Shown here: piece by piece, positions 9,125 through 62,301 of the stretch
Numbering within the stretch: the stretch's first letter is position 1
Layout: each line of letters begins with the position of its first letter
Origin: Chiloscyllium plagiosum
Lineage: Eukaryota
Reading direction: 5' to 3'
Assembly: GCF_004010195.1 (NCBI RefSeq)
Contig: NC_057718.1
Span: 84,541,446-84,605,445 of the forward strand
DNA length: 64,000 nt
Notes under the pieces: model-generated
What the model saw: only the letters and a program-made list of their open reading frames with translations
Database searches by the model: none
Told to the model about the DNA's origin: nothing
Made by a program: the position numbers and the translations under genes

Positions 9125-9251
9125 ATTAGATTACTTACAGTGTGGAAGCAGGCCTTTCGGCCCAACAAGTCCACACCAACCATCTGAAGGGCAACTCACC
9201 CAGACCCATTCCCCGACATGTACCCCTTCACCTAACCCTACGGGCAATTTA
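9125..9251 (-). mobile_element. HE1-type SINE 3' fragment
   Basis: Reverse complement of the tail of the SINE at 6107-6432. Confidence 0.8.
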
Positions 9252-10130
9252 GCGAAGAAGGTTACTTCAGATTACAACAGGATCTTGACCAGATGGGTCA
9301 ATGGGCTGAGAAGTGGCAGATGGGGTTTAATTCAGATAAATGCAAGGTGCTGCATTTTGGGAACGCAAATCTTAGCAGGACTTATACACTTAATGGTAAG
9401 GTCCTGGGGACTGTTGCTGAACAAAGAGAGCTTGGAGTGCAAGATAGCTCCTTGAAAGTGGAGTCACAGGTAGATAGGATAGTGAAGAAGGTGTTTAGTA
9501 TGCTTTCTTTTATTGATCAGGGTATTGAGTACAGGAGTTGGGAGGTCATGTTGCGGCTGTACAGGACATTGGTTAGGCCACTGTCGGAATATTGTGTGCA
9601 ATTCTGGTTTCCTTTCTATTGGAAAGATGTTGTGAAACTTGAAAGGGTTCAGGAAAGATTTACAAGGATGTTGCCAGGGTTGGAGGATTTGAGCTATGGG
9701 GAGAAGCTGAACAGGCTGGGGCTGTTTTCCCTGGAACATCGGAGGTTGAGGGTTGACCTTATAGAGGTTTACAAAATCATGAGAGGCATGGATAAGATAA
9801 ATAGACAAAGTGTTTTCCCTGGAGTGGGGGAGTCCAGAACTAGAGGGCATAGGGTTAGGGTGAGAGGGGAAAGATATAAAAGAGACCTAAGGGGCAACTT
9901 TTTCACGCAGAGGGTGGTACATGTATGGAATGAGCTGCCACAGGAAGTGGTGGAGGCTGGTACGATTGCAACATTTAAAAGCCATTTGGATAGGTATATG
10001 AATAGGCAGGGGTTGGAGGGATATGGGCCGTGTGCTGGCAGGTGGGACTAGATTGGGTTTGGATATCTTGTTGGCATGGACGGGTTGGACCGAAGGGTCT
10101 GTTTCCATGCTGTACGTCTTTATGACGCTA
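9252..10130 (+). mobile_element. 5'-truncated CR1 LINE with open 252 aa C-terminal ORF2 remnant (9293-10051)
   Basis: WAEKWQMGFNSDKCKVLHFG, LYRTLVRPLSEYCVQFW and VWNELPQEVVEA are typical of the CR1 RT C-terminal region; 3' UTR follows. Confidence 0.92.
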
Positions 10131-18826: not shown

Positions 18827-18946
18827 AGAGAAAGTGAGGGCTGCAGGTGCTGGAGATCAGAGCTGAAAATGTGTTGCTGGAAAAGCGCAGCAGGTCAGGC
18901 AGCATCCAAGGAACAGGAGAATCGACGTTTCGGGCATAAGCCCTTC
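18827..18946 (-). mobile_element. Short PLE-terminus-derived insertion inside the Copia RT
   Basis: AGAAAGTGAGGGCTGCAGGTGCTGGAGATCAGAGCTG...GACGTTTCGGGCATAAGCCCTTC; same family as 1251-1420; truncated within the ribozyme core. Confidence 0.8.
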
Positions 18947-19020
18947 ACTCCTTGTCTACCCTCACTCCTTGTTGTCCATTTGTTTCTCAAGTTTCGTAGC
19001 AAGTTTGGCCTTGGTTCCAA

Positions 19021-22380: not shown

Positions 22381-23866
22381 CAGGTTGTAATTGCTTTCAG
22401 ATGCTAGGTGACATCATCAGTGAGCCTCCAGTGAAGTGCTGGTGTTCTGTCCACTTTCTATTTATTTGTCTTGGTCTATTAGGGTGGGTGATATCATTTC
22501 CAGTTCTTTTTCTCAGAGATTGGTAAATGGGTTCCAAATCGATGTGTTTATTGATGGATATCCAGTTTCTAGCCTCTAGGAGTTCCTGTGCATGTCTCTG
22601 TTTAGCCTGTCCTAGGATGGATGTGTTGTCCCATTCGAATGGTGACCTTCTTCGTCCATTTGTAAGGATACTAGTGATAGTTGGTCATGTCTTTTGGTGG
22701 CTAGTTGGTGCTCGTGTATCCTGGTGGCTAGTTTCCTGCCTGCCTGTCTGAAGTAGTGTTTGTTGCAGTCCTTGCAGGGTATTTTGTAAATGACATTCAT
22801 TTTACTGGTTGTTGGTACAGGGTCCTTTAGTTTCATCAGCAGCTGTTTCAGTGTGTTTGTAGAATTAGAAGAAACCTATAATATCATTAACCACATATTT
22901 ACTGGCATAAATTTCATCAATGAATAAGAGAACAACAACAGGCTCCCCTTCCTACATGGAACAAACAGTCAATGGAGGACTGCAGACCAGCATCTACAGG
23001 AAAGCAACACAGATATTCAATGACAGGAACAATCATCTCAACACCCACAAACGGAGCTGCAGGACACTATTTATACTTCCACAACATATTGCAGCACCCA
23101 GGAACTACGAGAAGCAGAAGAAAAATACCTATACAGAGTATTCAAGAACAATGAGTACCCGATAAACATAGTATGCCAATCCTTAAACAACAAACCCAAA
23201 AAGAAGATACAACACACCCAGAGACTCTCATCACATACCATACATCAAAAACATCTTTGAGATGACTACCAGACTACTCCGACTCCTTGGCATCATGGTA
23301 GCCCACAAACCTACCAACACACTGAAACAGCTACTGATGAACCTAAAGGACCCTGCAACAATAACCAGCAAAATGAATGTCATTTACAAAATAGCCTGCA
23401 AGGACTGCAACAAACACTACATCGGACAGACAGGCAGAAAACTAGCCACTAGGATACACAAACACCAACCAGCCACCAAAAGACATGACCAGCTATCATG
23501 AGTATCCTTCCACACAGACGAAGAAGGACACCACTTCCATTGGGACAACACATTCATCCTTGGACAGGCTAAACAGAGACATGCACAGGAATTCCTAGAG
23601 GCCTGGCATTCAAACTGGAACTCCATCAATAAACACATCGATTTGGACCCCATTTACCAACCTGGAATAGAACTGGAAATGATATCACCCACCATAACAG
23701 ACCGAGACCCATAAACAGAAAGTTGGACAGAACACCAACACTTCAATGGAGGTTCACTGATGATGTCACCTAGCATGGTGACGAAATGTCTAAGGACAAA
23801 CCTACTGGCTCAGCAAGCAAACTTACAACCTGAACCTCAACCTGAGCTAAAGATCTTCTCAAAAAT
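22381..23866 (+). mobile_element. Penelope-like element (RT C-terminus plus GIY-YIG endonuclease) with an inverted partial copy at its 5' side
   Basis: ORF 23262-23501 NVIYKIACKDCNKHYIGQTGRKLATRIH is a GIY-YIG motif; 22381-22862 is the reverse complement of about 23311-23832. Confidence 0.9.
23753..23794 (+). ncRNA. Hammerhead ribozyme core in the PLE 3' region, partly decayed
   Basis: CUGAUGA (23757-23763), U, stem II GUCACC/GGUGAC (6 bp), GAAA (23783-23786), U, GUC (23788-23790). Confidence 0.65.
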
Positions 23867-29446: not shown

Positions 29447-29985
29447 GACAGGACTGCAGACGCTGGAGATCAGAGTTGAGAGTGTAGTGTTGGAAAAGCA
29501 CAGCAGGTCAGGCAGCATCCGAGGACCAGGATTATCGACGTTTTGGGCCTAAGCCCTTCCAGAGGGCAGTGTTGATTTGGAGGTTTGGGACTGGGAAAAT
29601 GTGGGTGGAGGGGAAATGAGGAAGCTGTTGAAATCCACATTTATCCCATGTGGTTGCAGGGTCCCAAGGCGGAATATGAGGCGTTCCTCCTCCAGGCGTT
29701 GGGTGGTAATGGTTTGGCGGTGGAGGAGGCCCAGCACCTGCATGTTCTTGACTGAGTGGGAGGGGGAGTTGAAGTGTTCAGCCACGGGTGAGTGGGAGGG
29801 GGAGTTGAAGTGTTCAGCCACGGGGTGGTGGCTTGGTGGGTGTGGGTGTCCCAGAGATGTTCTCTGAAACAATCTGCAAGAAGGCGTTCTGTCTCCCCGA
29901 TGTAGAGGAGTCCAGACCGGGTGCAACGTATGCAGTAGATGACATTAGTAGAGGTGCAGGTAAATGTCTGACGGATGTGAAAGGG
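29447..29985 (-). mobile_element. Penelope-like element 3' fragment (GIY-YIG region plus terminal repeat)
   Basis: PVAEHFNSPSHS...LEEERLIFRLGTLQPHGINVDF and terminal CAGCAGGTCAGGCAGCATCC repeat; contains a 36 bp tandem duplication at 29753-29824. Confidence 0.85.
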
Positions 29986-30179
29986 ACTAAGGTATCAGCA
30001 CAAGTCGAAGTCATACGATTATGATAAATCAGCCAGTACAGTTTGATCAAAAGCACTTCTCTAATCATCACTTTTTTAGTCAGAAAAGCCAACAAAAATT
30101 GCATGCACCATCATCTGCATTACAAGTTATCCATGGTACATGGTCAACAAAGTGAATGATCATTTATTAACAAAACTGT

Positions 30180-32830
30180 TACTTCAGTTTCACTTTCATT
30201 AGTTTCTACACATGCATTGCATGTATAATTTTTTATATCATGCAGGTTTTCTAATGGTGTGCGTTGTTGTTGGCTGTTTGTCTGGCATCTGCTCATTCCT
30301 GGATGATCCTTTGTGAAACATGCACGGCATGGTGAGTGTTATTACCATGGTAAACATTGTTGTTGATTCATTTCCATTGTGGGGAATACTGGACCTTTGG
30401 CACATATGGTCTTTCTCTACTTGGTGCAGATAATAAAATCACATGGAGTCATAGAGATATAGAGATGTACAGCACGGAAACAGACCCTTCGGCCCAACTC
30501 ATCCAAGCTAACCAGATATCCTAAATCAATCTAGTCCTATTTGCCAGCACTTGGCCTATATCCCGCGAAACCCTTCCGATTTATGTACCCATCTAGATGC
30601 CTTTTGAATGAATTGTGCCAGCCTCCACCACATCCTCTGGCAGCTCATTGCACACATACACCACCCTTTGCATGAAAAGGTTGCCCCTTAGGTCTCTTTT
30701 ATATCTTTCTCCTCTCACCCCTAAACTTATGCCCTCCAGTTCTGGACAGTCCAAACCAGGGAAAGGTCTTGTCTATTTACCCTATCCATTCCCCTCATGA
30801 TTTCATAAACCTCTGTGCGGTCATCCCTCAGCCTCTGATGCTCCAGGGAAAACAGCCCCAGCCTATTCAGCCTCTCCATTAGTTCAAACTCTCCAACCCT
30901 GGCAACGTCCTTGTAAATCTTTTCTGAACCCTTTCAAGTTTCACAACATCCTTCCTCTAAGAGGGAGACCAGATTTGCACACAATATTCCAAAAGTGGCC
31001 TAACCAATGTCCTGTGCAACGCAACATAATCTCCCAACTCCTTTACTCAATACTCTGACCAACACAGGAAAGCATACTAATGCCTTCTTCATTATCCTAT
31101 CTACTTGAGACTCTACTTTCAAGTGACTATGAACCTGCAGTCCAAGATCTCTTTGTTCAGCAACACTCCCCAGGACCTTACCATTAAGTGCCATTAAGTG
31201 TATAAGTCTTGCCCTCATTTGCCTTTCCAAAATGCAGCACATCACAATTATTTAAATTGAACTCTGTCTGACAGTCTTCGGCCCATTTGATCAAGATTCT
31301 GTTGTACTCTGATGTAACCTTCTTTGCTGTCCACTACACCTCCAATTTTGGTGTCATCTGTAAACTTACTAACTATATCTCCCATCTTCATATCCAAATC
31401 ATTTATATAAATGATGAGAAGTACTGGACCCAGCACCAATCCTTGTGGCACACCACTGGTCGTAAGCCTCCAGTCTAAAAAGCAACCCTGCACCACCATG
31501 ACTCTGTGTCATCTACCTTGAAGCTGATTCTGTATCCAAATGGCTTATTCTTCCTGTATTCCATGTGATCTAACTTTGCTAACCAATCTACCATGAGGAA
31601 CCTTGTCAAATGCCTTACTGAAGTCCACTTAGATCATGTTCACTTGTGCCTTCATCAATCCTCTTCGATACTTCTTCAAAAAACTTAATCAAGTTAGTGG
31701 GACATGATTTCCCAATAGCTGCCTGCAGTGAATGGACATTTGCAATAGGTCTGTGATTGAAACAAAATACATGGTAGTTCATATTCAGCATGTATGATTG
31801 AGGTGACAACTGCTCTTGTTGAGAATGGTGAATGTTTAAACTTTGTCTGGCTTTTTAATGCTTAGCTTTGGCAGTGTTAGCAAAGTGAAATATGGCTTTC
31901 TGTCAATTCACGTTGATTTTGTCACTCCCTCCTGTACTACATTTCAATTCAGCAATTTTATTTTCCAAGTTGGAAGACTATTTGGATGTGGTATGACATT
32001 TATATTAGATTGGACTGCTTTCCATGCATTCAGTGGGTAAATTTAATCACTCTAAAATTGAACTGGGGGATGCGCTGGATTTGCTTGATTTTTGTTATGA
32101 GTTGTTTGGCAGTTTTCACTGCTATCGCAGCCTTTCTTATTTGATTGAGAAAAGTATGGGAATGATGTATGGTACTGAATTTCACAATTCCTTATGATGC
32201 ACCTGAATTCTTCACTTATGAATTGAGTGCCATTGTCACTTTGTCACAATGTGATTCATACCAATTAAAGTGGGTTTTCAAGCAGTTTGCAATCCCGTTG
32301 GTTGTTGACCGCAGCTGGTCCAATTCCCAGTTGTCAGGATAGTATCAAATGGTGACAAGATAATCATTTCCTGTGCTGTTGAAGTCTACTCAAAGCATCA
32401 TTCATGGTCTGTCTGTTATTTTGTACAATCTAAGCAGTTCTTTAGTTATCTTAGCTTAGCATTTGTTATGAGCATTGCGCTAGCTAATGTCATTCTTATC
32501 ATTATTTAGGTTTGGCATTAGAGCACCTCTCCTGCCTTCTTTAGACTAGACTCAATTCCTGGATGGCTTGCTTGGATGTGCTTCAGCATTTATTTTCTCA
32601 TCTCTTTAGATATAATGACTATGTCCTTTGTGTAAAGTGGCATATACATATGTTATTACTACACCAGTCCTATCATGGGCTGTATAACATGCATCTTCAT
32701 CCTTGTTCTTTGTACCTTAATTCCTATGCTCTACTGATGCCTACACCCTATATCTGAACAATCTTTAAAGGCCTTAACCACTGGGTCTTCCATTATCCTT
32801 TGTGACACTACAGAATATTTAATTTATACT
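30180..32830 (-). mobile_element. Decayed Ty3/Gypsy integrase region, split by a CR1 (30445-31713)
   Basis: Manual translation of about 32630-32100: MLKHIQASHPGIESSLKKAGEVL, DYLVTI*YYPDNWELDQL, ANCLKTHF, matching the zinc-binding and core regions of Gypsy integrases; many stops. Confidence 0.7.
30445..31713 (-). mobile_element. 5'-truncated CR1 LINE
   Basis: SGVPQGLVLGPVLLIIYINDLD...SKFTDDTKIGG and GKSCPTNLIKFFEEV; 3' tail at the left end. Confidence 0.92.
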
Positions 32831-33430
32831 ACCAAGACTGCTGGAAATGACTTTTTCCGTAATTCACATCCTCTAATCTGCTCTTTTGGCTATAGTATTT
32901 ATATATCTGGTCCAGTTTAGTTTCTGATCAATGGTAACCTTCAGGAAATTGATAGTGAGGAATTCAGCAAAAATAATCTGCCAAATATTAAAGGAAGATA
33001 GTTAGATTCTCTCTTGTTCGAGATGGTCATTACCTGACATTTGTGTGGCCTGGATGTTACTTGCTGGTTGTCAGTGCAGGTCTGAATATTGCCCAGTCTT
33101 GCTGCATATGGACTGAGATTGCTTCAGTATCTGAGGCGCTGAAAATGATACTGAATATCATCCAATCTTCAGTGAATGTTCTCACTTTTGAACTTATGAT
33201 GAAAGGAAAATCATAGGTGAAATGACTGTAGATGACTAGGCCTAGCAAACAAACCTGAGGAATACCTACAGCAAAGCCTTGGAACCAAGATGATTGATCT
33301 CCAACACAACTATCTACCTTTGTGTTAGGTGCGACTCCAACCAGTGGAGATTTCCACCCACTCCCCCCATTCCCAGTTTTGCTAAGGATCCATGATTGCA
33401 CACTTGGTTCAATTGTCTTTGATATTAAGT
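32830..33430 (-). mobile_element. Old LINE RT fragment
   Basis: ORF 33057-33401 has degenerate RT motifs (GIPQVCLLGLVIYSHFTYDFP, VRTFTEDW). Confidence 0.55.
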
Positions 33431-34490
33431 ATACTAATGCTCAAAGTATACAGGTGGTGGATGAATTCACTAGTGAGCCTGTCAGCTGCAAAGTTGGGAA
33501 AAAAAGTGAGCCGGTTATTGGAGGAACACAAGTTTCTTCAATACTCTCATTAGCTCCTTGCTTCCCCTCTATTTCTTTTATCTACCATGGTTTGTAATAT
33601 GTAGATTGTTTGCAACTTTTGAAAAATTCTCCCACAAACTTGTAGTCAGCTTGTATGTTGAACGTAAGATGTGAACTGCCAGTGTTGGTGTTCACCAGCT
33701 GCCATGGGCATTCTGCTTAGCCTGGGCACATCTTGGTAACATTTCTATACCACCTGCTTTATCTTGTGAAGTGACTTAGAAAACAAATTTAATCTTAAAC
33801 ACGTATTCTGAGCTGAAAACTTGAGTCCAACTCCTAATTTATATATGGTCATAAACATGCAATTATTAGCTGAAAAATAGGGGGACCCTATTGACTCTAT
33901 GTATGTTATTTCTCCATTCACAGTATTAGTGTTAAATCATTTAACTTTTCTGTGTTTTGTGAGTGAGTGGGTGTGTAATTCAGGGCTTTTGAAGAGGTAT
34001 AGTTTAAGTCTCATTGTAGAAATCTTTACTTTCTCTTCGTTTTTGTTGAAGTGTGTATCAGTAAATAATTATTTTTCTGTTACTGACTTAACCCTGGAAT
34101 GAATTTCCTTTGTCCAAATAGCAATCAGTTAGGAAAATTTGTCATTTTGGTGGTTTAATTGGATTTTATATATTTTGGGATAGCTTTTGCAACAGTGGGG
34201 CACGAATATTGGCACTCTTTCCAGAGAAATCCGAAGACTTCCCTGACTGTGTACTTGCTTAAATCTTGTTCCAATTCAATTTTTTTTCCTAAAGCTCCTT
34301 GGCCTGGATCGATAACACTTTCTGTCAGATCGTAGATAGTGCCCAATCTGCTGATCACTTCGAGCTTCTACTCTGGCATCCAAAATGTTTCACTCTTATA
34401 CACACACTATTGTTTCGCAATAGCCCAAAATGCACTTTAGGTGCGTTTCAATTTTGAACCCATTTGCTCCCATGGACCGTGTATTATAAC

Positions 34491-34707
34491 GGGGAGAAAG
34501 TGAGGTCTGCAGATGCTGGAGATCAAAGTTGAAACTTTATTGCTGGAACAGCACAGCAGGTCAGGCAGCATCCAGGGAACAGGAGATTCGACGTTTCGGG
34601 CACAGGCCCTCTCATTCCTGAAGAAGGGCCTGTGCCCGAAACGTCGAATCTCCTGTTCCCTGGATGCTGCCTGACCTGCTGTGCTGTTCCAGCAATAAAG
34701 TTTCAAC
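34491..34707 (+). mobile_element. Very young palindromic PLE-derived insertion with TSD
   Basis: Perfect 83 bp inverted arms (34528-34610 / 34625-34707); direct repeat ACCGTGTATTATAAC at 34476-34490 and 34706-34720. Confidence 0.9.
34614..34649 (+). ncRNA. Minimal type I hammerhead ribozyme (PLE-type)
   Basis: AUUC-CUGAAGA-A-GGGC-CUGU-GCCC-GAAAC-GUC-GAAU: conserved core, 4 bp stem II, stem I AUUC/GAAU, loop-less palindromic stem III (ACGU), predicted cleavage after C34645. Confidence 0.75.
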
Positions 34708-34940
34708 CGTGTATTATAACAAATAGTGCGCAATCTAAATCTTGTCGCGTAAATATAAATGCTGATATTAACGTCTGTTGAGCCCGAGTAAATTTTGAAT
34801 ATTTAAGTTTTGCGTTTAATAAAGCATTGCAATTTCGGCCATTCATTTAGATGTTAAGGACTTTTGATCTGAAAAGCTGACCTATTTTAATGACATCTAA
34901 GTATTCTGAAACAGCTTGATCAATTCACATATTTATTAGT

Positions 34941-35046
34941 GGTTCTGAAGAAGGCTCACTGGACACGAAACGCTGTTTCTCCTTCCACAGGTACTGCCAA
35001 ACCTGTTGATTTCTGTTTCGGTTGCAGATTTCCAGCATTCAGCAGC
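34941..35046 (+). mobile_element. Old PLE-terminus-derived short repeat with decayed hammerhead core
   Basis: TCTGAAGAAGGCTCACTGGACACGAAACG...CCACAGGTACTGCCAAACCTG; related minus-strand copies at about 25790-25880 and 59975-60045. Confidence 0.55.
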
Positions 35047-35238
35047 TCCCTGTTCGACGTGAGTTTTGAGTTGCCTTTTTCGCTTTGATTTCGGAACAGA
35101 GCTCCAAAGGTCTCAGTTGACGAGGGGCATTAGGACCGCGCGGAGCCACAGTTCGAAGCTCCCCCAGCGGAACCGCGCTGATAAGAACCACTGCCAGGCT
35201 TTTGACGTCAGTTACATTCCTGATTTAAACTGTCAAAG

Positions 35239-35329
35239 ATGGCGGCAGGCGGCGAATGGAGGGGGTCAGCGATTTGTCGTCGTCGTGGTGGCGGCGATGA
35301 CAATGTTGAAGACGACAGCATCAGCGAAG
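35239..35329 (+). CDS. Candidate first exon of an unidentified gene (MAAGGEWRGSAICRRRGGGDDNVEDDSISE); may instead be 5' UTR
   Basis: Strong Kozak AAGATGG within the YY1 motif; open for 30 codons plus 1 nt up to donor AAG|GTAACA at 35329/35330. No downstream exon identified. Confidence 0.4.
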
Positions 35330-35594
35330 GTAACAACCCTGTCCACGGAGTATAACTCCTACATTTTAACTGTGTTGTGTCGCCGTCGGCTTATGGGAGG
35401 AATCCGGTCACATTTCCGACCGTTGCGTCCGGTTGAAAAAGTTCGTTAGCTGTCCTACCTCCGGCAAGATTTGAACAGCGTCGCGCGGTCAGGAACCCGC
35501 ACGCGTGAAGGGAAAGTTTTTTTTGGGGGGGGAGGGGGAGGAGAGTGAGAGAGGAGGGTTCAGTCCCTGGATCTATGCTGTCGCGCAGGCGCAG

Positions 35595-35820
35595 TGAGGA
35601 GGTGGCGGTTACGACGCGGTGTGTTCCGACTGTTCTCTACGCCGACTTCCCCTTCTCCCTTTACGCATGCGGCCGTGAGGCGACGTTTCTGGGCCTAGGT
35701 CGCTCGGGGGAAGGGGGTGGGTGGGGGCGAGGGTAAAGAAAAAGGAGCTGCCGTTGAAAGCGGCAGAGAAATCTGAGGAGATGCGGGTTGGGTTCCGGAG
35801 ATCCCCGGGACGGACAGCCG
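35595..35820 (+). other. Candidate alternative first exon
   Basis: Lies downstream of the NRF1-like motif and ends in consensus donor CCG|GTGAGT at 35820/35821. Start is approximate. Confidence 0.45.
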
Positions 35821-37544
35821 GTGAGTTTGAGGGGGAAAGGGAGATCATTATGGGGATGGTGTGGATGGGGAGCGCGCTTATTAAATGAAGATTTTGGACA
35901 GACGCAAATGGCCCTGCAATCCTGTGTAGGCCCGCACTGGGTGCTAAGGTCGGGATTCAGGATCAAATGAAGTCAACGAAATCAAATGAAAAACCCGTTT
36001 ACATTCCCGGGTTTAAAAAAAAACACAGTAACTACGGAAAGCCGCATATGTCAGGAGGACTGGCCCCAGCGTTGCTGGAGCGTTTTCCTTCACTGGTTGG
36101 GGGGTGGGGTGGGGTGAAGCTCCTTTTCACCTACAGGCTGGCGTGCAAGAAGGGCCCTTTGCTTTTTCATCCGATGTTGAGGGAGGAGAGAGTTGGGGAC
36201 AGACCAGAGTTGAGCAAAATGAATCGGAGGAGAGTATCTTTGCAGACGCCGCGTCCTCTCGTCATTGACGACTTGTAGGACAGAAAAGTCGACCATTCCA
36301 TCCCGCGATGTTGTGAAGTGTCAGCTGCTTTTGCGTGAGCTTGGGGGTGGGTTATAGAAGGCGTGGAGAGGGCTGAGCGCTCAGTCCATGTGTTAAGAAA
36401 TATCGGGCGCTGTAGTATATTAGAATAACGTTAATTCGACCGGGCTTTAACTGTATTCCAACTTCCCTCCCCTCCACCCGTGCCTGAGGGCTGATCATTT
36501 GTGGCTGTGCCTCGACCGTTGAAGGAGGGTTCGTGTATCTGCATGTGGCTCGTACCCCTCAAGGCTCCTCCCTCCAGGAATTTGGTTGCACACTTCGTTG
36601 GGGGGTGGTTATGTAACAGCACGCAAATCCAATGCTAAGAGAAGCAAGGACATTTTTACTAGGGGGAGGGGAGAAGTGGAGAGTGAATTCATTCTACCAG
36701 ATTCATCCTGCTATGTCAAGACCAGGTACTCTACTATTGCTTTGGAACGAAGTGGGTGGATTTGTCTCCTGATTCGGAGCTCATTGAGTGAAGTCAAAAC
36801 CTGAACATTTATCGTTTCTTTTCAATTTTCGGTTTTAAGAAAAAAAACGTAGAAAACCATTCTGGGCTTTCTGAATGTAAGGTTTGAGTATCACCGTGCA
36901 CGTTTCTGTTTTTAGTTTTGTTAATTTTGCACGTTGACCTCAGATCCTGACATTTCTTACAAACATCCCGAATTCCTTCACTTCTATTATCTCGAGTTTG
37001 TAATCTCACACTATTGATCAAAACCGGGGACTTTTTTGTGATTTCTGATGCGGTTTTGTTTGACATGGTACCTTCACCAGTCATGCTGTTGAAATAATTT
37101 TCTGCATTTTAATGCTTGCACGATTGTTGAATCATGTAGAATTGAATTAAGAAAAGTATCAACCCAAAATGTGTAATTAACCAATTGTGCAACATTTTGC
37201 GGCACTGTTGCTGATAATGTTTATTGCTGCCCCTGATGGTTACCCCCCTCCCTCCACGCTGTAAATGCTTGAGAATTTTTATCATCAAAAGCCTTTGTTA
37301 TTTGGTATTGATAATATTGGTGATTATAGATACTCGTATCTATAGGTGTAAGTCAGCTTTGTGGCATAGCTTTTTGATTGAATCTCTGACATGAAATTTG
37401 AAGAATGATCTTATTGTCACAATAAAATTTGAAAGTTTTATTGTATTTTCACCAAAAATGCATCCAACAATAAAATCACCATGAAGAACTTCCACGGTCG
37501 CTGTGATCTGGTGCCATTTTGAATAGTTTAAAAATAAGGCATTT

Positions 37545-38685
37545 GCCAAGGTTCACCATGGGAGACTGATTAGCAAGGTTAGATCTCACGGGATGCAGGG
37601 AGAACTAGCCATATGGATACAGAACTGGCTCAAAGGTAGAAGACAGTGGTGGTGGAGGGTTGTTTTTCAGACTGGAGGCCTGTGACCAGTGGAGTGCCAC
37701 AAGGATTGGTGCTGGGTCCCCAACTTTGTCATTTACATAAATGATTTGGATGCGAGCATAAGAGATATAGTTAGTAAGTTTGCACATTACACCAAAATTG
37801 GAGGTGTAGTGGACAGCGAAGAAGGTTACCTCAGATTACAACAGGATCTTTACCAGATGGGCCAATGGGCTGAGAAGTGACAGATGGAGTTTAATTCCGA
37901 TAAATGCGAGGTGCTGCATTTTGGGAAAGCAAATCTTAGCAGGACTTGTATACTTAATGGTAAGGTCCTAGGGAGTGTTGCTGAACATAGAGAGCTTGGA
38001 GTGCAGGTTCATAGTTCCTTGAAAGTGGAGTCTCAGGTAGATAGGATAGTGAAAAAGGCATTTGGTATGTTTTCCTTTATTGGTCAGAGTATTGAATACA
38101 GGAGTTGGGAGGTCATGTTGCGGCTGTACAGGACATTGGTTAGGCCCCTGTTGGAATATTGCGTGCAGTTCTGGTCTCCTTCCTATCAGAAAGATACTGT
38201 GAAACTTGAAAGGGTTCAGAAAAGATTTACAAGTGTTGCTAGGGTTGGAGGATTTGAGCTATAGGAAGAGGTTGGGGCTGTTTTTCCCTGGAGTGTCGGA
38301 GGTTGGGGGTGACCTTATAGAGGTTTACAAAATTGAGGGACATGGATAGGGGAAATAGGCAAAGTCTTTTCCCTTTGCGGGATCGGTGAGTCCAGACCTA
38401 GAGAGTATAGGTTTAGGGTGAGAGGGGGAGGATATAAAAGAGAGCTAAGGGGCAACTTTTTCACACAGAGGGTGGTACATATATGGAATGAGCTGCCAGA
38501 GGAAGTGGTGGAGGCTGGTACAATTGCAACTTTTAAGAGGCATTTGGTTGGGTATATGAATAGGAAGGGTTTGGAGGGATATGGGCCGGGTGCTGACAGG
38601 TGGGACTAGATTGGGTTGGGATATCTGGCTGGCATGGATGGGTTGGCCCGAAGGGTCTGTTTCAATGCTATACATCTGACTCTAA
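37545..38685 (+). mobile_element. 5'-truncated CR1 LINE
   Basis: FVIYINDLDASI, MEFNSDKCEVLHFG, LYRTLVRPLLEYCVQFWSP and CR1 terminus; closely similar to 14376-15758. Confidence 0.95.
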
Positions 38686-38691
38686 CTGATC

Positions 38692-38822
38692 AGTGTGCAG
38701 GTTAGGTGGGGTTAGCCATTGGGAATACAGGAGTAGGGATGGGTCTGGATGGGATGCTCTTCAAAGGGTCCGTGTAGACTTGATGAGCAGAATGGCCTGC
38801 TTCCACACTAGAGATTCTATAT
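38692..38822 (+). mobile_element. HE1-type SINE 3' fragment
   Basis: TGTGCAGGTTAGGTGG...GGCCTGCTTCCACACTAGAGATTCTAT. Confidence 0.65.
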
Positions 38823-41032
38823 AGTTCATAACACACCTGCCACTGCTTTGCTGCCGCCGGCACTGGTCTCAACCCGGATTTAAGTTATCGCTCCTCAGGC
38901 AGCATCTTTTGCCGCTGGACTTACCTTGCCAATATAGCAGCTGAAGCCGGTCCTCTGCTCACCTCTCTGCCAGCTTCCTCCTTGCTGCCATTTGTCAGGG
39001 TCCTACTTTGGGCTCACCAGCTACCTCACCAAGTAGGTCTTTAATACATTTACAAGCTATTTTATGAGCTAATCAGATCCACATAACAATCTAGTAATCC
39101 ATGCTTACTTGTTGCAAAGTACAATACTTTTTAAAATCAATGTAGGATAATATTCTGGACTTTATTCAGAGTTTCTTCATCTCCAGAAGGAGATCTTTTG
39201 AACTATTTTCAGTTGATTATAATGGCAATTCTGACCATTCTCTAAGTGTTAGTATATGTCCCTGGTATTGTATGAGCGAACTACTGTATTTATGGGTGAC
39301 ATTGTGCATCTCATAATTATTAGAATTCTTTCATAGGTGCTGTCCAGGAGTAACTTTTGTTTATTGCTGTAGCCTAGGAATGCTTTTCCGATCAGTGCAA
39401 TGAAACAGTCTTTGAAATTAGAAAGCAGCTAATTTTATTTTTCCTGCTCTACTATCACAGAAGCAACCATACTACTTTTAAGTATCACTGGCTTTCTAGT
39501 TGAAGATTAATTGATAAGGTTTCTTTGGCAATTCATCCTTCCTTCCAAGTTGTTTATTCCTAATTGCTGTTGAGAAGGTGATGGTGAGCTGCCCTCGAGC
39601 TGTTAGTCTGTCATGTAGGTACCTGCATAGTGCTGTTCAAAAAGGAGTTAAATTTTTTTTTTGACCTACCAACAATGAAAGAATGGTTGTTTTATGACAT
39701 TTGGACCTTGCAAATTGTGATGTTTCCATGTGTCTGCTGTCCTTCACTTTGTGGGTGATGGTCATGGCTTTGGAAATTGCTGTGAGTTGACAGTATGCCC
39801 TGCTACCAGCAATACTAGTAGAGGGGGATCAATATTTAACTTGGTGGAAGGGAGCTGACAAAGTGGACCTGTTTATTTTCTGTGGTCTCGAGCTTCTTGT
39901 GTGTTACTGGTACAATGCTCATCCAGGGGCAAGAAAAATATTCTATGCTCCTGACCTGGAAATACTAGCTCTGCAACCTTTTCAGTACAATTTATTCAAT
40001 ATGAATTACAGTGGACTGCGAAGCTTTTAAATGTCTTCCCTACCAGATGTTAATTTTGGAGTGCTGAAATGTTGTGGGGGCAGACGCAGCAAAGAGCTTT
40101 TCGAAAACACTTCAAGCAGTGCTTCATTTACATTAATCAGTGTAAGGAGCTTCCTACCAATGGCTTGTCCATCAAGCTTTGTGTCCACATAGCTAAATGA
40201 TGAGGTACAGTAGCAGCAGAGAAGGATGATAAAGGAGACACATTCTGGATCTTGCACCCTCGTAACCTCCTGTCCCACATGGCCAAAGATGACCTGGTAC
40301 AGAATGGGCCTGTTTAGTGATAGTCATGTGGTAGTAATGTGTGTCCTTGAATAGACTTTGTCCTCAAATCAAAGGACCGCTACTGACAAATGTTTAGAGT
40401 GTCATACAACATGGAAATAGACCCTTTTGGACCCCACAAGTCCATTGCTTTGAGGAAGAAGTCTACTCAAGGACAGTCAGTAGGTATGTTACTCAATTCC
40501 AAAATGTTTGAGGAGTTCTTGATGTTGATGATTCACAAACTTAGCTGGTAGCGTGCTTTCCAGAAAATGTTAACATTAATTTTTAAAAGATTCAACACTT
40601 ATGGATTGGTAGGATTTTGTGAATATAACTTTCTTGGGAATGTTTTGAAAATCTCTCTTTTCAACTTGCATTTAATATACTTTTTTAAACATAGTAATTA
40701 TCAAAGTGGCTACAGATTTGGTCTTGTTTAAATTTTGTAGGATTGAAGATGTAGAGCATAGATTGCTTTAGTAATGAATTGGATAACAGTGGCATAATTG
40801 TGCCATAGACTGAGTAGGGCATATGACAGTATGAAACCAAGTGTTTCCTTCTAAGGTGGCTATTGCTACATGTAGGAAGTGCTTAAAGTTGCAATTTTCA
40901 CAAATACACCACAATTTGTGAAACTTCTTTTAATTGAAGAATTGCTACGTTCCCTGTCCTTAGCAGAAGAAAGTCTGTGCCTGTACCCCACAAGTTGAAA
41001 TGCAGTGCTTTAGATTTGTAAGTGAGGGCATT

Positions 41033-41984: not shown

Positions 41985-42545
41985 TAGAGTTGAAAAGTGT
42001 GGCGCTGGAAAAGCACAGTAGGTCAGGCAGCATCAGAGGAGCAGGAGCGATGACGTTTCAGTCATAAGCCCTTCATTGGGAATGTAGTGGGAGGGAGCTG
42101 AGGCATAAATGGGGGGTGGGGTGAGAATAGAGCTGTGGGGGGAGGGGGAAAGTATGTTGAAGGCAGTAGGTGGGGAGGTGATGTTAATAAGTCAGAGGGT
42201 GGAGCAGATATGTGGGAAGGAAGATTGACAGGTGGGATAGTTCAAGGGGGCAGTGCAGAGTTGGAGGATTGAATCTGGGATGAGTTGAGGGGGAGCACAG
42301 ATGAAGAAACTGGTGAAATCAACATTGATGCCATGTGTGGTTGGAGAGTCCCAAGGTGGAAGATGAAGTGTTCTTCTTCCAGGCATAGGCTGGCTAGGCA
42401 TTGGTGGTGGAGGTGGCCCAGAACTTGCATGTCCTTGGTGGAGTGAGAGAAGGGAGTTCAAGTGGTTGGTCACAGGGCGTTTGTGTGTCCCAGAGATGTT
42501 CTCTGAAACGTTTAGTGAGTTGGTGTCCTGTCTCCCCAATGTGGA
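41985..42545 (-). mobile_element. Penelope-like element 3' fragment
   Basis: LEEEHFIFHLGTLQP / HGINVDFTSF motifs and the terminal repeat as at 29447. Confidence 0.82.
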
Positions 42546-44778: not shown

Positions 44779-44897
44779 AGATAAAAACAATGACTGCAGA
44801 TGCTGAAAACCAGAGTCTCGATTAGAATGGTGCTGGAAAAGCACAGCAGTTCAGGCAGCATCCGAGGAGAAGTAAAATCGACGTTTCGGGCAGAAGC
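44779..44897 (-). mobile_element. Short PLE-terminus-derived insertion with 15 bp TSD
   Basis: CTTTTAAATCTTATT at 44764-44778 and 44898-44912 flanks AAAACAATGACTGCAGATGCTG...GACGTTTCGGGCAGAAGC. Confidence 0.85.
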
Positions 44898-46849
44898 CTT
44901 TTAAATCTTATTGTATTGGTGGTACAGTGGGCAGCAAAAGCTTTCTTCTTGGCAGAAGATGTGAATGAAAAGTACTTAATGTTAATGCTTCTATCAAGGA
45001 GATCTACAATAATCTTGTTGCCACAGAGTTAATGCTATTTAATGCTTGTACTTTAAAATTTTAATTTATAAAACATTGTACTTTGTGCTGAACTGCAGAT
45101 CATGTATTTCTTTATTACAATTGTTAAGTTTACCAGGTCACCAGACCTAGTCTTATGAAAATTTTAGTGGATCTTAAATACTTTCATCCTCACTGCCGGC
45201 ATAATATAATCTCAAATTGCTATCTCTGGATATGACAAAACTACATGGAAAAAGATCATGTTCACTTTGGGATTTATAGAAATTTCACTAGTCCTTCATT
45301 GCAATGTTTGTAGTGAGAGTTGAAAGAAAATTGTGTTTCTGTCTAACTTTGAGCATCGTTTGTTTTTAGGATTAATCAATTTAAATATGGATTACAATGT
45401 GGAAATGAAATCTTCATTCATCCATCTTTCTGCAGATTATCTTCCACTTTCTATTTCAAAATTTTGTATGTTCATTTTGTTACAAAAATGAATTTGTTCA
45501 CAAAGTTTGCAAGATAAAATATGCTGTGCAAAAGCTGCTTGCAATGGTGAAGGGAAAGAAAGCATTTAAGTTCTGTTAACAATTTATTTTTGATCTGAAA
45601 GCTAAGAAACTATGTCAAATGAGGCACCTGAGAGCTGTTAAATGTGCTGTACTTTGTGACACTAATCAGTTATCTTGAAGCTGCATTGTTGGATTTACAT
45701 AATTCAGTAACCAACATTTTTTTTGTAGGCTTTTAGTTGGTGGAATTGAAATTTATAAGTTGTGTAGAAGTTTAAAAACAAATTATTGAGGTTTACTTTT
45801 AACTACTTTAAAAGGTTTGTAAGAGCATTTGGTCCTCATCTTTTTGTGATGCAAAATTGCTAGGAAGTATCTTTTTTTTAAATTGAGCTGCTGAGATCTT
45901 TTTTACAATAAACTTTTATACTAGATGCATAACATTGGACAAATGGATTTTTTTTATCAGAAGTCTTTTTTATTATTTGAAGACCATCCAATTCCTTTTA
46001 CAGCAGTGTCTATGAAACTGAGTGGACAGTAATTACTTCCGTATTTAATACTATGAACTATATAGGTTAGATGGTTGCTTAAAAAATTAACTTATGGGTT
46101 TGTCAGTTTTTCCCCCTAGTACACCATATACATATTTTTCTCTTAGCTCTTAGTAATGTTTATATACTAAAGTGAGCTTGATCCCACTTAACCTGAAGTG
46201 GCAATAAAATTACTTGTGTGGAAATTAATTGACTTTAAATCCCCAGGTTTAAAGAAATATTTTTCATGAAATCCCAAGAAAGGCTGTCAGAATTTGGGTT
46301 AATGGATTTGATTCCTATTGTGTAAAACTAGATTCTTGCGCCTAATTTGCTATTTGTGCGCAAGTACGGAGGTTTCTTCCAAAGTAGGATTCAGAAATAT
46401 TGGGAGTGGAAACTTCTTTTTGTGTGAAAATACCTTGTTGTTTGTGATTAGTTACTTAGAGCATTTAGTTTTTCCACAGTTGCTTTATAATTTATCAGAA
46501 TGAAAATTGGTGACAAGCCGAATGACCACTTTTATTAATGTCGCTAAAATGTGCAGCCGGAAAAGCATCGCAGGTCAGGCAGCATTGGAGGAACAGGATC
46601 GTCAACGCTTTGGGTTGGAATTTTTGTTAATCCTTTGTAGCAAAAAGCGAGGATATTGTACGCATTAAAGTTTTTTAAGAAGAACTTTTTTGTTGCTGCA
46701 TATGTGCAACTTTTTAAAATGAACTTTACTGTTGTATATCAGGTAGGAAGATGTTAACAGTTGAATATCTCTACAAAAGAAATTTAGATTCAGTCCAACC
46801 ATTAATTTCCATGTAGTTGGTAACTCTCCACAGGTGCTGGCATACCTCC

Positions 46850-47699: not shown

Positions 47700-49945
47700 G
47701 TCTTGAAAGTACAGCAGGTCAGGCAGCATCCGAGGAGCAGGAAATTGACGTTTCGGGCAAAAACCCATTATCAGGATTAGAGGCAGGAAGCCTCCGGGGT
47801 GGAGAGATAAATAGGGGGAGGGGGGGTGAGGACAGTGTTGAGTTGGAAGGTTGGAACTGAGGTAAGGTGGGGAAACTGGTGAAGTCCACATTGATGCCCT
47901 GGCGTTGAAGTGTTCTGAGGTGGAAGATGAGGTGTTCTTCCTCCAGGTGTCAGGTGGTGAGGGAGCAGCAATGGAGGAGGCCCAGGACCTGCATGTCCCT
48001 GGCAAAGTAGGAGGGGGAGTTGAAATGTTGGGCCACGGGGCGGGGGGGTTCATTGGTGCGGGTGTCCCGGAGATGTTCCCTGAAGCGCTCTGCGAGGAGG
48101 CATCCAGTCTCCCCAATGTAGAGGAGACCGCTTATGCCCGAAACGTCGATTCTCCTGCTCCTTGGATGCTGCCTGACCTGCTGCGTTTTTCCAGCAACAC
48201 ATTTTTCAGCTCGGATCTCCAGCATCTGCAGTCCTCACTTTCTTTGAGACCGCATCAGGAGCCAAGGGTTCAATAAATGACATTGGTGGATGTGCAGTTG
48301 AAACTTTGAAGGATGGGAAAGATTGCTTTGGGGCCTTGGGTGGTGGTGAGGGAGGTGGTGTGGGTGCAGGTTTTGCAATACCTGCGGTGGCAGGTGATGG
48401 TGCCAGGATGGGAGGGTGGTTTGTTGGGGGACGTAGACCTGACCAGGTAGTCACGGAGGGAACGGTCTTTGCGGAAAGGGGTGGGGAGGGAAATATATTT
48501 CTGGTGGTGGGGTCCGTTTGGAGGTGGCGGAAATGTCGGTGGATGATTATGGTTAATGGTAGAGTGGAAAGTGGGGGTGGGGGGGGGGTTCCGTCCTTGT
48601 TTCAGTTGGAGGGGTGGGGTTTGAGGGCGGAGGTGGGGGATGTGGATGAGATACATTGGAGGGCATCTTCAAACACGTGAGAAGGGAAATTGCCATCTCT
48701 AAAAAAAAAAAAGAGGACATTTGGTTTGTTCTGTAGTGGAACTGGTCCTCCTGGGAGCAGATATGGCGGAGGAATTGGGAATACGGGATGGCATTTTTGC
48801 AGGAGTTGGGGGAAAGAGGTGTAATCCAGGTAGCTGTGGGAGTTGGTGGGTTTGTAAAAATTGTCAGTGTGAAAGCCGGTCGTCATTAATGGAGATGGAG
48901 AGGTCCAGGAAGGGGAGGGAGGTGTCAGAGATGGTCCAGTTGAATTTAAGGTCGGGGTGGAATGTGTTGAAGTTGAACTGCTCAACCTCCTTGTGAGATC
49001 ACGAGGTGGCGCCGATGCAGTCATCAGTGCAGCGGAGGAAGAGGTGTGGAGTGGTGCCGGTGTAACTACGTGGCTGACAAAGAGACAGGCATAGCTGGGG
49101 CCCATATGGGTGCTCACGGCTCCCCCTTTGGTCTGGAGGAAGTGGGAGGATTCGAAGGAGAAATTGTTAAGGGTGAGGACCAGTTCAGCCAAACGAATGT
49201 GTGTCAATGGAAGGGTACTGTTGGGGACGTCGGGAGCGGAAGAAACTAAGGGCTTGGAGGCTCTGGTCATGGTGAATGGAGGTGTAGGGGGATTGGATGT
49301 CCATGGTGACGATGAGACGTTGGGGGCGGGGTGTTTTAAAAAATTCTCAAGGTCAAGGACCAGGCTCGCAGGAAAGTAGTCTGACACAGAACAAACAGCC
49401 AAGAGGCGAGTCTGCTAGAATATAAGTGTTTTTATTCCCCGCAGCGTCGCCACAACCAGTCTCGTACTTACAACGGGTCTGGTTTATACTCACTCTACGT
49501 GTTACCGGAACTGGGAGCCGTCAGTTCTCGTAGAGCGGTTGCCAACAACCCACGCTCGGCGGTTAAACGCAACCCCGGAGCAGACTCACCGAACTGGAGA
49601 CTTTTCCAGCTGATATACTCTTTTCCAGATATAAACATTCATGTGAACAGCAGAGCAAGGCTAAAAAACACATTCCATTCTGGTTACATACAGATAAGAA
49701 GATTCACACGGGGAGGTGTGTAATAAGATTCACACGGGACTAAGCAACACCTCCATTCCGGTTAGATTCACACATGTATTGGGACATAATTTTTAACCGT
49801 TTCACCACACGGGGGAAACGGAAGTCATGGAGGAGGTGGAGGACGTGGGTGGTGTCTTGGATGCTGCATGACCTGCTGTGCTTTTCCAGCATCACTCTGA
49901 TCTAAACTTTGGTTTCCAGCATCTGCAGTCCTCACCTTTGCCTAG
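47700..49945 (-). mobile_element. Penelope-like element (RT plus GIY-YIG) with inverted terminal piece, nested short insertion (48132-48245) and nested solo LTR
   Basis: LAELVLTLNNFSFESSHFLQTKGGAVSTHMGPSYACLFV (RT), LLYIGETGCLLAERFREH (GIY-YIG); inverted terminal repeat at 49860-49945; nested insertion flanked by GAGACCGC. Confidence 0.9.
49332..49809 (-). mobile_element. Solo LTR (478 bp) with 5 bp TSD, nested in the PLE RT
   Basis: CGGGG (49327-49331) TGT...ACA CGGGG (49810-49814); minus-strand AATAAA at 49431-49436; repeated AGATTCACAC; CpG-rich. Confidence 0.85.
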
Positions 49946-51369
49946 TTGAAGCGATAAGAATGCCTAGTGTAGGAAGTGAAATATATTAATGACAGGCTGA
50001 GGCTGGTTATAAACTTTTGAGCTTTGCATCTGGTATTTGTAGTCCTAGTAGCTTGTCCTTTTGTCAGGTGAACCCATGGTGTAAGCTTTGATATATTTTC
50101 TACAGTATGTGTTGCAATGCTGCATCAATAGTTGAAGGTTATGTATCCAGTTATTAGTAAACTTCTTTTGAACGTTATTTTTATTTAGCCAAATATTTAA
50201 TGGTTCGAATGTTGCGCTCTTGATAGCTATTGAGACTGTTATCTTTTTGGAACTAGTTTTGCTGTTAGCATCACTTGTTTGGTAGCTATGTGCTAAAACC
50301 GATTGAGATGTCAATGGCACCTGATGGGAATTAATATAACAGCAGTGGTGCAGTAGAGCACGTATTCAGGTTTGATTTATACAGAAAGTACTATGGTTTG
50401 GAAAGAATACTGGTATCTGATATTTAAATTGTGATGTGGTCATCTTTATTTGATTTTAGTGAAACTTGCAATCATGGAAATATAGAATTGTATTGTACCA
50501 AAAAGAGGCCATCAGCCACTGAACATATGTTGACTTTTGGTAGGACTAATTGAATAACTACTCTTCTGTCCTTTTTTCTTTTGGAGCCCTGTAGATTTTT
50601 TTCTTTTAAATATTTTCCAGTTCTTTGAGCTACTAAATAAATTGCCATTCTTTCAGGCACTGCTTTCTTGATCACCGTAACCCTGTGTATACAGAAACTA
50701 ATCCCACCTCAGTTTGCGTTTCTTGGTTGCCTGGATTCACTGGAAATATAATGTGGAAGAGCATGATACTGTAATCTTTTGCTATAAATTCTGTATCTTA
50801 TTGTCCTGCTCCACAACTACCTGATGAAGAAGCAGTGCTCCAAATAAACATGTTGGACTATCACCTGCTGTTTGTGATTTTCAACTTTGTTCACTGGAAA
50901 TAGATTTTGCTTACTGATTGATAAAAGTGCCTCATGATTTCTTTTTCCCTTGGTTTTTTTATGCTCTGAGACCAACCCCAGCCACAGTACTGAAACCCCA
51001 CACCCTGGTATTCCAGTAAATTTCCTCTCCTCTTTCCAAGAGCCTGGACACTTCAGAAGTGTGGTGCCCAATAGCACCATTGGCAATTGCTTGCTATTAA
51101 GTACGATTGACCACATCAGAGATTCTTTGTCACTGGTCATGAGTACTGTGTTCTTGTATGGCTTATGAGTCCAATCCTAGAGCTGCATCTTCAACCACAC
51201 ATTTATCACATTTCTGGGAGGTGGAATTGGCCTTGGCCTTGAGATTATTGGCATTCTTTTCTTTTTCTGTACTTGCTCTTGCCACTGGGTATTCCAAAGA
51301 TTATCTCTCCATATAGGAGTTTCTTCCACGATTGAAGAACAATTGTTTTTTTGCTAGTTCCCTGACTCG

Positions 51370-51725
51370 TTCCTAATGAAGGGCTTTTGACCAAAACATC
51401 GTTTTTCCTGCTTCTCGAATGCTGCCTGACCTGTGCTTTTCCAGCACTACTCTAATGAAGACTATGATCTCCAGCATCTGCAGTCCTCACTTTTGCCTAG
51501 TTGATTTTAACCTTACTGCGAATGCTCTTGCAAGGATGCCTACCTTGAAGTTCTCCTCCGCTCTCTGCAAGGTTTTCAGTGAGTCTCTGTCTCTGTCTCT
51601 CTGTCTCTGTCTCTCCTCTCTGTCTCTGTCTCTCCTCTCTGTCTCTGTCTCTCCTCTCTGTCTCTGTCCCGCTCCTAGGATGCTGCCTGGCCCTGCTGTG
51701 CTTTTTCAGCACCACTCTAATCTAG
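51370..51725 (+). mobile_element. PLE terminal-repeat-derived sequence containing a (TCTCTG)n microsatellite (51583-51668)
   Basis: CTAATGAAGGGCTTTTGACCAAAAC (decayed hammerhead) and TCTCCAGCATCTGCAGTCCTCACTTTTGCC; second partial repeat at 51670-51725. Confidence 0.7.
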
Positions 51726-61218: not shown

Positions 61219-61347
61219 GAGGTAAAAACAATGACTGCAGATGCTGGAAACCAGATTCTGGATTAGTGGTGCTGGAAGAGCACAGCAATTCAGGCAGCAT
61301 CTGAGGACAGGCAAAATCGATGTTTCGGGCAAAAGCCCTTCATCAGG
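61219..61347 (-). mobile_element. Short PLE-terminus-derived insertion with 12 bp TSD and hammerhead core
   Basis: ACCAATGTCCTG at 61207-61218 and 61348-61359; minus strand CUGAUGA-A-GGGC-UUUU-GCCC-GAAAC-AUC. Confidence 0.85.
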
Positions 61348-61849
61348 ACCAATGTCCTGTACAGCCGCAACATGACCTTCCCAACTCCTATACTCAATAC
61401 TCTGACCGATTAAAGGAAAGCATACGCTGCCTTTGCTATCCTATCAACCTACGACTTCACTTTCAAGGAACATTGAACCTGCACTCTAAGGTCTCTTTGT
61501 TCAGCCACACTCCCCAGGACCTTTTAAGTGAATATGTCCTACCCTGATTTGTCTTTCCAAAATACATACCTCACATTAAACTCCATCTGCCACTCCTTCG
61601 CCCATTTGCCCACCTGATCAAGGTCCCATTGTATTCTGAAGTAACCACCTTCACTGTTCACGACACCACCAATTTTGGTGTCATCTGCAAACTATGCCTT
61701 CTATATTTACATCCAAATCATTTACATAAATGACAAAAGCAGTGAACCCAGCACTGATCCTTCTGGCACACCACTCGTCACAAGCCTCCAGTCTGAAAGG
61801 CAATCATCACCCTCCGTCTTCTACCTTTGAGCCAGTTCCAAATACAGAT

Positions 61850-61929
61850 AGGTAAAAACAATGACTGCAGATGCTGGAAACCAGATTCTGGATTAGTGGT
61901 GCTTGAAGAGCACAGCAGTTCAGGCAGCA
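61850..61929 (-). mobile_element. Short PLE-terminus-derived insertion with 13 bp TSD
   Basis: TCCAAATACAGAT at 61837-61849 and 61930-61942; nearly identical to the first 80 bp of 61219-61347. Confidence 0.85.
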
Positions 61930-62301
61930 TCCAAATACAGATGTTTAGTTCACACTGTATTCCATGAGCTCTAATCTTGCTAACCAGTCTACCACGTGGA
62001 ACCTCGTCAAATGCCTTATTGAAGTCAGTGTTCATGACATCCACTGCTGTGCCCTCATCGATCCTCTTCATTGCTACTTCAAAGAACTCAATAGTGAGAC
62101 ATGATTTCCCACGCACAAAGCCATGTAACCATCCCTAATCAGTCCTTGCCTTTCTAAATACATGTAAATCCTGTCCCTCAGGATTCCTTCCAACAACTTG
62201 TCCATCATCAATGTCAGGCTCACCGCTCTATAGTTCCCTGGCTTTTCCTTATCACCTTTCTTAAATAGTGGCACCACGTTAGTCAGCTTCCCATCTTCTG
62301 G

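Follow-up and report, generated by a model that had tools for sequence, protein, structure and literature searches.

The palindromic insertion at 34476-34720 of the 64,000-nucleotide stretch of Chiloscyllium plagiosum DNA analysed here (the window) is a polymorphic, stump-sized end-repeat (pLTR) insertion of an abundant, endonuclease-bearing Penelope-like element. Its palindrome was probably generated in the course of this one insertion, with one RNA, capped and not cleaved, serving as the template for twin priming. Most likely, this copy has no host function. The locus is ordinary, and it is useful as evidence on mechanism: the layout of inverted pLTRs with a tail is already known, and what is new here is the empty allele, a sequence variant mirrored in both arms, and the start-site and cap signal.

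Structure of the insertion

The inverted arms (34528-34610 and 34625-34707) are 83 nt each, 100% complementary and separated by a 14-nt spacer, and the insertion is flanked by direct repeats (34476-34490 and 34706-34720) with an identity of 15/15. The first-pass annotation of this DNA, which had described perfect arms, a 13-15 bp target-site duplication and retained CpGs, is confirmed on these points, with one copy of the flanking repeat in the empty allele and six CpGs counted in the element. The right arm shares the first two bases of the direct repeat, and therefore the insert can be read as 217 bp with a 13-bp duplication, as annotated, or as 215 bp with a 15-bp duplication. The description of the left arm as 83 bp holds for its mirrored portion, but an unmirrored 35-nt extension (34493-34527) had been left uninterpreted. 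When the repeat unit is numbered from +1 = 34614, with the predicted ribozyme cut after +32 (+33 being the first base past the cut), the right arm corresponds to unit -3 to +94 on the plus strand and the left arm to +12 to +129 on the minus strand. The features are as follows.

34476..34490, plus strand: left target-site duplication of 15 bp, or of 13 bp when the element is credited with the 2-nt microhomology; a single copy is present in the empty allele
34491..34492, plus strand: two extra G at the left junction, mismatched to the continuation of the element
34493..34527, minus strand: Penelope 'tail' of 35 nt, unit +95 to +129, on the long arm only (compare PMC11167929, PMC8557442 and PMC3846280)
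34528..34610, minus strand: mirrored portion of the long arm, unit +12 to +94, without the first half of the hammerhead core
34611..34707, plus strand: short arm, unit -3 to +94, with the entire hammerhead included
34612..34618, plus strand: presumed initiator-like motif, which contains 34614 (unit +1), where family copies most often have their 5' end and where transcription putatively starts
34614..34649, plus strand: minimal type I hammerhead with a loop-less helix III and a predicted cut after 34645 (PMC4209133)
34706..34720, plus strand: right target-site duplication, 15 bp, of which 2 nt overlap the right arm
34783..35526, minus strand (likely): neighbouring transcript from a CpG island, outside the element, polyadenylated at about 34783-34793

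The hammerhead motif

The anatomy of the annotated minimal type I hammerhead (34614-34649, core 34618-34645) is borne out in full. Helix I is formed by 34614-17 with 34646-49, followed by core nucleotides 34618-24, an extra A at 34625, and helix II (34626-29 with 34634-37), and the conserved core, the extra base after A9, the G10.1-C11.1 pair and the palindromic, loop-less helix III are all present, matching the motifs described in PMC4209133. The motif was not recovered by an Rfam search of 30000-40000, which returned no hammerhead family and two hairpin look-alikes far below gathering scores. The variants that recur within the family are changes of core position 7 and of loop II, both of which are free positions.

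Folding of the whole element gave a pairing probability of 0.0 for helices I and II, which agrees with the earlier proposal that the hairpin and ribozyme folds would be mutually exclusive in a read-through RNA. For the unit from +1 to +94, the predicted probabilities are 0.99 for helix II and 0.02-0.03 for helix I, and helix I reaches 0.3-0.5 in the isolated motif. Cofolding of two hammerheads yielded no helix III dimer, such folding being weak evidence. The entire hammerhead is retained at 37 of the 77 loci described below and the core at 55, so that insertion gives the hammerhead no strong protection. According to PMC4209133, minimal hammerhead monomers do not cleave and dimers cleave little. 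In the insertion process the ribozyme would be a passenger, the template end being made without it.

An empty allele

Contigs of four runs were aligned on 33900-35300. In three of these runs (3 samples from 2 studies), contigs with 105-255 letters on the shorter side of the junction join 34475 directly to 34706, skipping 230 nt and leaving one copy of the duplication, while in the fourth run contigs enter the element from either flank. The same site is therefore empty in three samples and filled in the fourth run, and the insertion is polymorphic, as had been suspected from its apparent youth. Read support covers both junctions, and the interior of the element is taken from the assembly; the empty allele in runs X4 and X7 may derive from DNA or from nascent RNA, X5 is a presumed DNA run, and X1 may be the sample behind the assembly. 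Taken as a single copy, this is a dispensable, segregating insertion. The three empty-site samples also deviate from the window at several flank positions within 33931-35104, so that the filled allele may have its own haplotype.

Abundance and Penelope origin of the family

Exact matches in the genome number 15,848 for a 37-mer taken from the arm and 17,868 for a 26-mer that lies past the cut site, and there are 2,965 palindromes in which exact inner arms stand head to head. Reversed-pattern controls for the two oligomers gave 0 matches, which places the element family beyond chance. In a first search, the asymmetric shape was found at 40 of 40 scored loci, the window copy included, with an identity of 93-100%, and the flanks differ at each of 30 fetched loci. 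The notion of a special mini-element is not supported, the window copy being one of the 2,965 palindromes, in which the centres vary and its own centre occurs at only 4 loci.

At locus L064, a unit 100% identical to that of the window lies directly downstream of a GIY-YIG frame (Pfam PF01541, E 2e-5), and a matching ORF end is present at L061, L062, L047 and L036. The unit is therefore the pLTR, or end repeat, belonging to an element that codes for a GIY-YIG endonuclease, and the Penelope-like origin given by the first-pass annotation is upheld. What we take to be an RT-like fragment lies ahead of an N gap at L064, and a Pfam search returned no match for it. Since N gaps break the long copies, no intact master ORF was recovered from the 5 long candidates fetched, the long 'open frames' of which are N gaps.

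Around a dozen older relatives of the hammerhead unit occur in the window at 68-89% identity, three of them with a recognisable core; activity of the family has come in waves.

Older relatives, part 1: 1251-1416, 18828-18952, 23757-23790, 29450-29559, 42004-42084, 44831-44901
Older relatives, part 2: 47708-47783, 48124-48243, 49858-49938, 51366-51493, 61235-61348, 61865-61933

The window also contains a LINE-like remnant at 9236-10051 with a weak RVT_1 match (E 0.06), and 37540-38680 is presumably a further LINE-like remnant.

Pairing of long and short arms

Over the first 19.6 Mb of contig C1, all 100 matches to the 26-mer were collected, giving 77 loci that comprise 34 inverted pairs and 43 single arms (26 long and 17 short). 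Across these loci the arms end 3' at +94/95 or at +129 to +131. All 34 pairs combine a long with a short arm, in comparison with about 48% expected from the 26:17 split of single arms (p about 1e-11), the cut-off between the classes being +105 and three of the 34 'short' arms ending early (+56, +65 and +74). Among the 34 pairs, 8 have a long arm that gets no further than +33 or stops short of it, and none has such a short arm (p 0.008); the short arm extends further 5' in 22 pairs, less far in 9 and equally far in 3. At L070, the long arm ends at +94, exactly at the start of the short arm.

In the window copy, unit -3 to +11 is found on the short arm only and +95 to +129 on the long arm only. 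Each arm can thus hold sequence that is absent from the other, so neither was copied from the other and fold-back is ruled out; the palindromes consist of two opposite cDNAs, each from a target end and neither derived from the other. A loop-II variant, found in about 290 palindromes, is mirrored in both arms at 50 of 51 loci among those listed, where random pairing from a 10% mixed pool predicts about 18 single-arm cases per mirrored one, and hence both arms derive from one source. The mirrored variants, which also fit two RNAs from one locus or variant sources active at different times, fall short of proving a single RNA. Private changes, by comparison, are mirrored in 3 of 38 cases; most of the 35 confined to one arm look like later mutations.

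The target duplications measure 12-17 bp in 55 of 64 pairs. There are 24 centre types among 43 pairs, and the tail is one-sided, being in the window copy the 35 nt on the left arm. Partial tandems were found at 2 of the 77 loci (L043 and L104). At L078 and L070, 135 nt and 86 nt of unrelated sequence, respectively, are caught between the arms. Furthermore, the centres of L124, L153, L020, L105 and L107 contain sequence ending near +35/+36 joined to +1, bases that are paired at the foot of helix I; such joints hint that helix I was folded in the template, and they offer a route toward tandem hammerheads.

The template's 5' end

The 5'-most end falls at -3 to +14 in 58 of the 77 loci, with a mode at +1, upstream of -3 in 16 and past +14 in 3. 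The cut site (+33) is the 5' end at 0 of the 77 loci, the nearest starts being at +29, +29 and +31, with one further arm at +29, and ribozyme-cut RNA was rejected as the template on this count, which bears on the use of the template and not on catalysis. Helix I of the hammerhead has +1 as its first base, and this position lies inside the presumed initiator-like motif at 34612-34618.

Among the matches listed (100 of 719), a G precedes +1 in 45 of 73 copies with A at -2, against a background of 28% (p 2e-9), the base at -1 in the source element being C; in copies after C, the excess of G is not significant (4 of 27, p 0.14). Joints into 34614 make up 5 of the 12 insert rows listed (with 175 further rows), and all five have an extra G or GG. 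At the 24 G loci that were fetched, the G is explained by the target or the other arm in 8, is a clean, lone extra base in 3, belongs to a longer insert in 6, and is ambiguous in 7. A reverse-transcribed cap yields an extra G, as is established for other retroelements, and the extra G at +1 may accordingly be an indirect sign of a capped template. A splice acceptor at +1, as in D. virilis, was considered and rejected, the source having no AG there. In runs X21, X10 and X16 the interval 34300-34400 lacks depth and read starts do not pile up, no reads of X22 aligned, and the depth over the element comes from other copies; these data are neutral on expression of the window copy.

Shared interiors in the assembly

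One identical, odd interior containing a second, damaged hammerhead occurs at 34 loci (L143, L145, L147, L148, L154, L158 and L161-L190). Over its 4,830 bases no private change was seen against an expectation of about 22, compared with 6 in 2,620 for the right arms (p 0.002); 3 of 30 loci in this group are long plus long without a target duplication, and a duplication of at least 10 bp is seen in 16 of 30. The shared interior is probably a gap-fill artefact of the assembly, or else a second-generation palindrome that moved whole. A second-generation, tandem-hammerhead subfamily was rejected as a reading of these loci, with no private changes and duplications often absent, and because the interior is likely an artefact, interiors in the assembly need long-read checks. 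L040 and L053, which lie 3.5 Mb apart, share the same interior junction together with about 110 bp of one flank, and may represent an assembly chimera or a transduction.

The neighbouring promoter and transcript

A CpG island starts near 35000 (in 500-bp windows, GC 0.53 and CpG o/e 1.17 at 35000-35499). The first-pass annotation was right to place one nearby, but it lies about 300 bp to the right of the element, versus about 500 bp as claimed. A contig of run X7 starts at 34793 behind a T run and one of X10 at 34783, the read direction in X21 fits a minus-strand RNA, and a poly(A)-signal-like hexamer is present at 34820; the likely end of a minus-strand transcript is therefore 73 bp away from the right duplication. 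At 35820, immediately ahead of a splice-donor-like motif, the contigs of two runs fork, which gives a weak hint of a plus-strand first exon ending there. The region 34783-35820 is a likely two-way CpG-island promoter with an unspliced, polyadenylated minus-strand RNA. The same transcript region is also seen in the run of another organism (X16). Within the 3' part of the minus-strand transcript, and antisense to it, lies a second, older hammerhead-like Penelope relic of another family, with a degenerate core (34944-35040, plus strand). A Pfam search of plus-strand frames of at least 55 aa to the right of 35000 gave no match for 76 of 81, the remaining five having been left out, three of which fell in a separate nine-frame search or an obvious LINE stretch; the nine-frame search itself produced two weak matches only.

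Proposed mechanism and alternatives

In the proposed mechanism, transcription from a promoter in the pLTR would begin with the first base of helix I of the hammerhead. The Penelope protein, which is predicted to dimerise, would nick both target strands about 13-15 bp apart, whereupon the two target ends would prime on that one RNA, the first at unit +129 and the second at +94. Both cDNAs would then extend to the RNA 5' end, but the +129 cDNA would have to displace the other and would stop early more often. Finally, the two cDNA ends would be joined, mostly via a 0-3 nt overlap, and filled in, the outcome being two arms set head to head, with a tail on one side only and a centre that varies. 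Whether Penelope integration is an obligate asymmetric twin priming, in which a protein dimer makes two copies of one capped RNA, each begun at its own fixed site, with the hammerhead uncut at the RNA 5' end, is in our estimation an evenly balanced question. If it were, the tail, the inverted pLTR and the single hammerheads would be explained in one step, and the 'truncated' single hammerheads would be full-length run-offs from the first pLTR. Furthermore, thousands of young, segregating copies would document in vivo a step which is described in the field as undefined, and copies that retain the initiator, that of the window included, could be secondary sources.

Given the same Penelope origin, both target strands might instead prime on two separate RNAs that come from a single source locus and are kept together by an asymmetric dimer, and this we regard as rather unlikely. 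If the complex assembles on the transcripts of one locus, such a scheme fits the long-plus-short rule and the mirrored variant and makes strand displacement unnecessary, and a helix III hammerhead dimer could tether the two RNAs (PMC4209133). By itself, however, it leaves unexplained why early stops affect the long arm only (8 versus 0) and why the long arm of L070 stops at +94, and the simple cofold of two hammerheads described above, weak evidence as it is, gave no helix III dimer. Far less probable, and largely refuted, is the reading in which the palindrome itself is the mobile unit (a hammerhead mini-element or MITE-like element) or the fold-back of one cDNA. Fixed outer ends, the high identity (96-99%) at all 40 scored loci and the one interior common to 34 loci would be expected of a self-propagating palindrome, but those identical interiors point to an assembly artefact, the centres vary (24 types in 43 pairs, that of the window at 4 loci), the ends are asymmetric with each arm of the window copy having sequence missing from the other, in 22 of 34 pairs it is the short arm that extends further 5', and 43 of the 77 loci are single arms. 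That the insertion is real and its perfect interior was imposed by the assembler is the most improbable reading of all. Aligned reads do confirm the junctions only, gap-fill artefacts occur in the family, and the long copies contain N gaps; yet the rarity of the window centre (4 loci) means that no assembly path was reused, the assembler retained 35 arm-specific differences in 64-65 other pairs, and, as the family differs by 38 in 8,287 bases, perfect arms are often to be expected.

It is also very unlikely that the window copy acts on the neighbouring promoter, whether as a self-silencing ribozyme switch, a source of dsRNA or a cruciform. The element does lie 73 bp past the poly(A) end of a CpG-island transcript, and minus-strand read-through, in consequence, would meet the hairpin, folding an 83-bp perfect duplex predicted at about -181 kcal/mol (-117 kcal/mol for the DNA hairpin). 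It would not, however, meet a complete ribozyme core, the first half of which is missing on the minus strand. Self-silencing as first proposed requires a plus-strand read-through RNA, and the adjacent transcript is on the minus strand; moreover, the apparent start of the family RNA, 34614, lies rightward of the left arm, and this RNA would so lack the blocking arm. For minimal hammerheads, monomers that failed to cleave and dimers that cleaved little are reported (PMC4209133). A device at the promoter is not supported either: the insertion is missing in 3 of 4 samples and so is dispensable, and it is one of thousands of copies, some of which will lie near promoters by chance. The window allele is a natural test of the effect of a hairpin just past a poly(A) site, and the family is a large supply of presence/absence markers and perfect hairpins.

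Comparison with known systems

The general Penelope layout is an inverted repeat with a one-sided tail of 30-40 bp (PMC8557442), and inverted pLTRs, a 31-bp tail, target duplications and solo pLTRs have been published (PMC3846280). The window copy resembles Pen2a_Av of Adineta vaga (PMC3846280, PMC8557442) in its inverted pLTR joined at the 5' end, its target duplication, its one-sided tail of 30-40 bp (35 nt here and 31 in Pen2a), and the hammerhead and initiator-like motif in the pLTR. Unlike Pen2a_Av, it is without coding sequence and segregates, and its family consists of thousands of fixed-end copies; the duplications are also longer, at 12-17 bp versus 8-10 bp in A. vaga (PMC3846280).

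With the metazoan Penelope hammerheads of PMC4209133, the motif shares its core, the extra base between 9 and 10.1, the G10.1-C11.1 pair, the palindromic, loop-less helix III and the 4-bp helix I, whereas helix II is 4 bp here and 7-8 bp in the Schistosoma families. That text also reports opposite-strand hammerhead pairs 100-700 bp apart and many single motifs from truncated elements; the word 'shark' is absent from its main text, and the part of PMC6155905 consulted has nothing on sharks. A literature search covering few subscription papers found nothing on shark Penelope hammerheads or on Penelope twin priming. Non-LTR retrozymes (bioRxiv 10.64898/2026.07.22.740005) are likewise non-coding, hammerhead-bearing and derived from Penelope pLTRs, but they form tandem arrays of two or more complete hammerhead units, which the ribozyme is presumed to cut into single units. 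A retrozyme was rejected as an identity for the window copy, which is inverted and not tandem and belongs to a family with 5' ends clustered at +1 and none at +33.

In L1 twin priming, as described in PMC12016303, both target strands also prime on the same RNA and opposite cDNAs come to lie between target duplications. In L1, however, such events are in the minority (18-22%), the internal sites are scattered, and the overlap is small, with a median of 12 bp when present. Here 34 of the 77 loci have this form, the two internal sites do not vary, and a palindrome results because overlaps of 80-90 nt are frequent.

A biochemical parallel is the Poseidon element PAc of Anolis carolinensis (PMC11167929, Frangieh et al.), whose protein, a predicted dimer, cuts and extends both strands in vitro, with two internal start sites bounding the tail, uncleaved RNA as the template, and insertion independent of ribozyme cleavage. 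The family described here shares the two tail-bounding start sites, the extension of both strands, the uncleaved RNA, and the position of the hammerhead about 80-120 nt upstream of the start sites. The two differ in that each pair here uses one site per strand, whereas for PAc in vitro the choice of start site did not differ between the strands; inverted insertions are not discussed in the text available, where 'inverted' occurs once, for a blocking group. The origin of tandem and inverted Penelope structures is given as an open question in PMC8557442, and PAc, the one in vitro system (PMC11167929), accounts for the tail but not the inversion. For a PAc-type system, the present counts predict one start site per strand and arms of the same source, as well as an RNA that starts at helix I and leaves the cut site unused.
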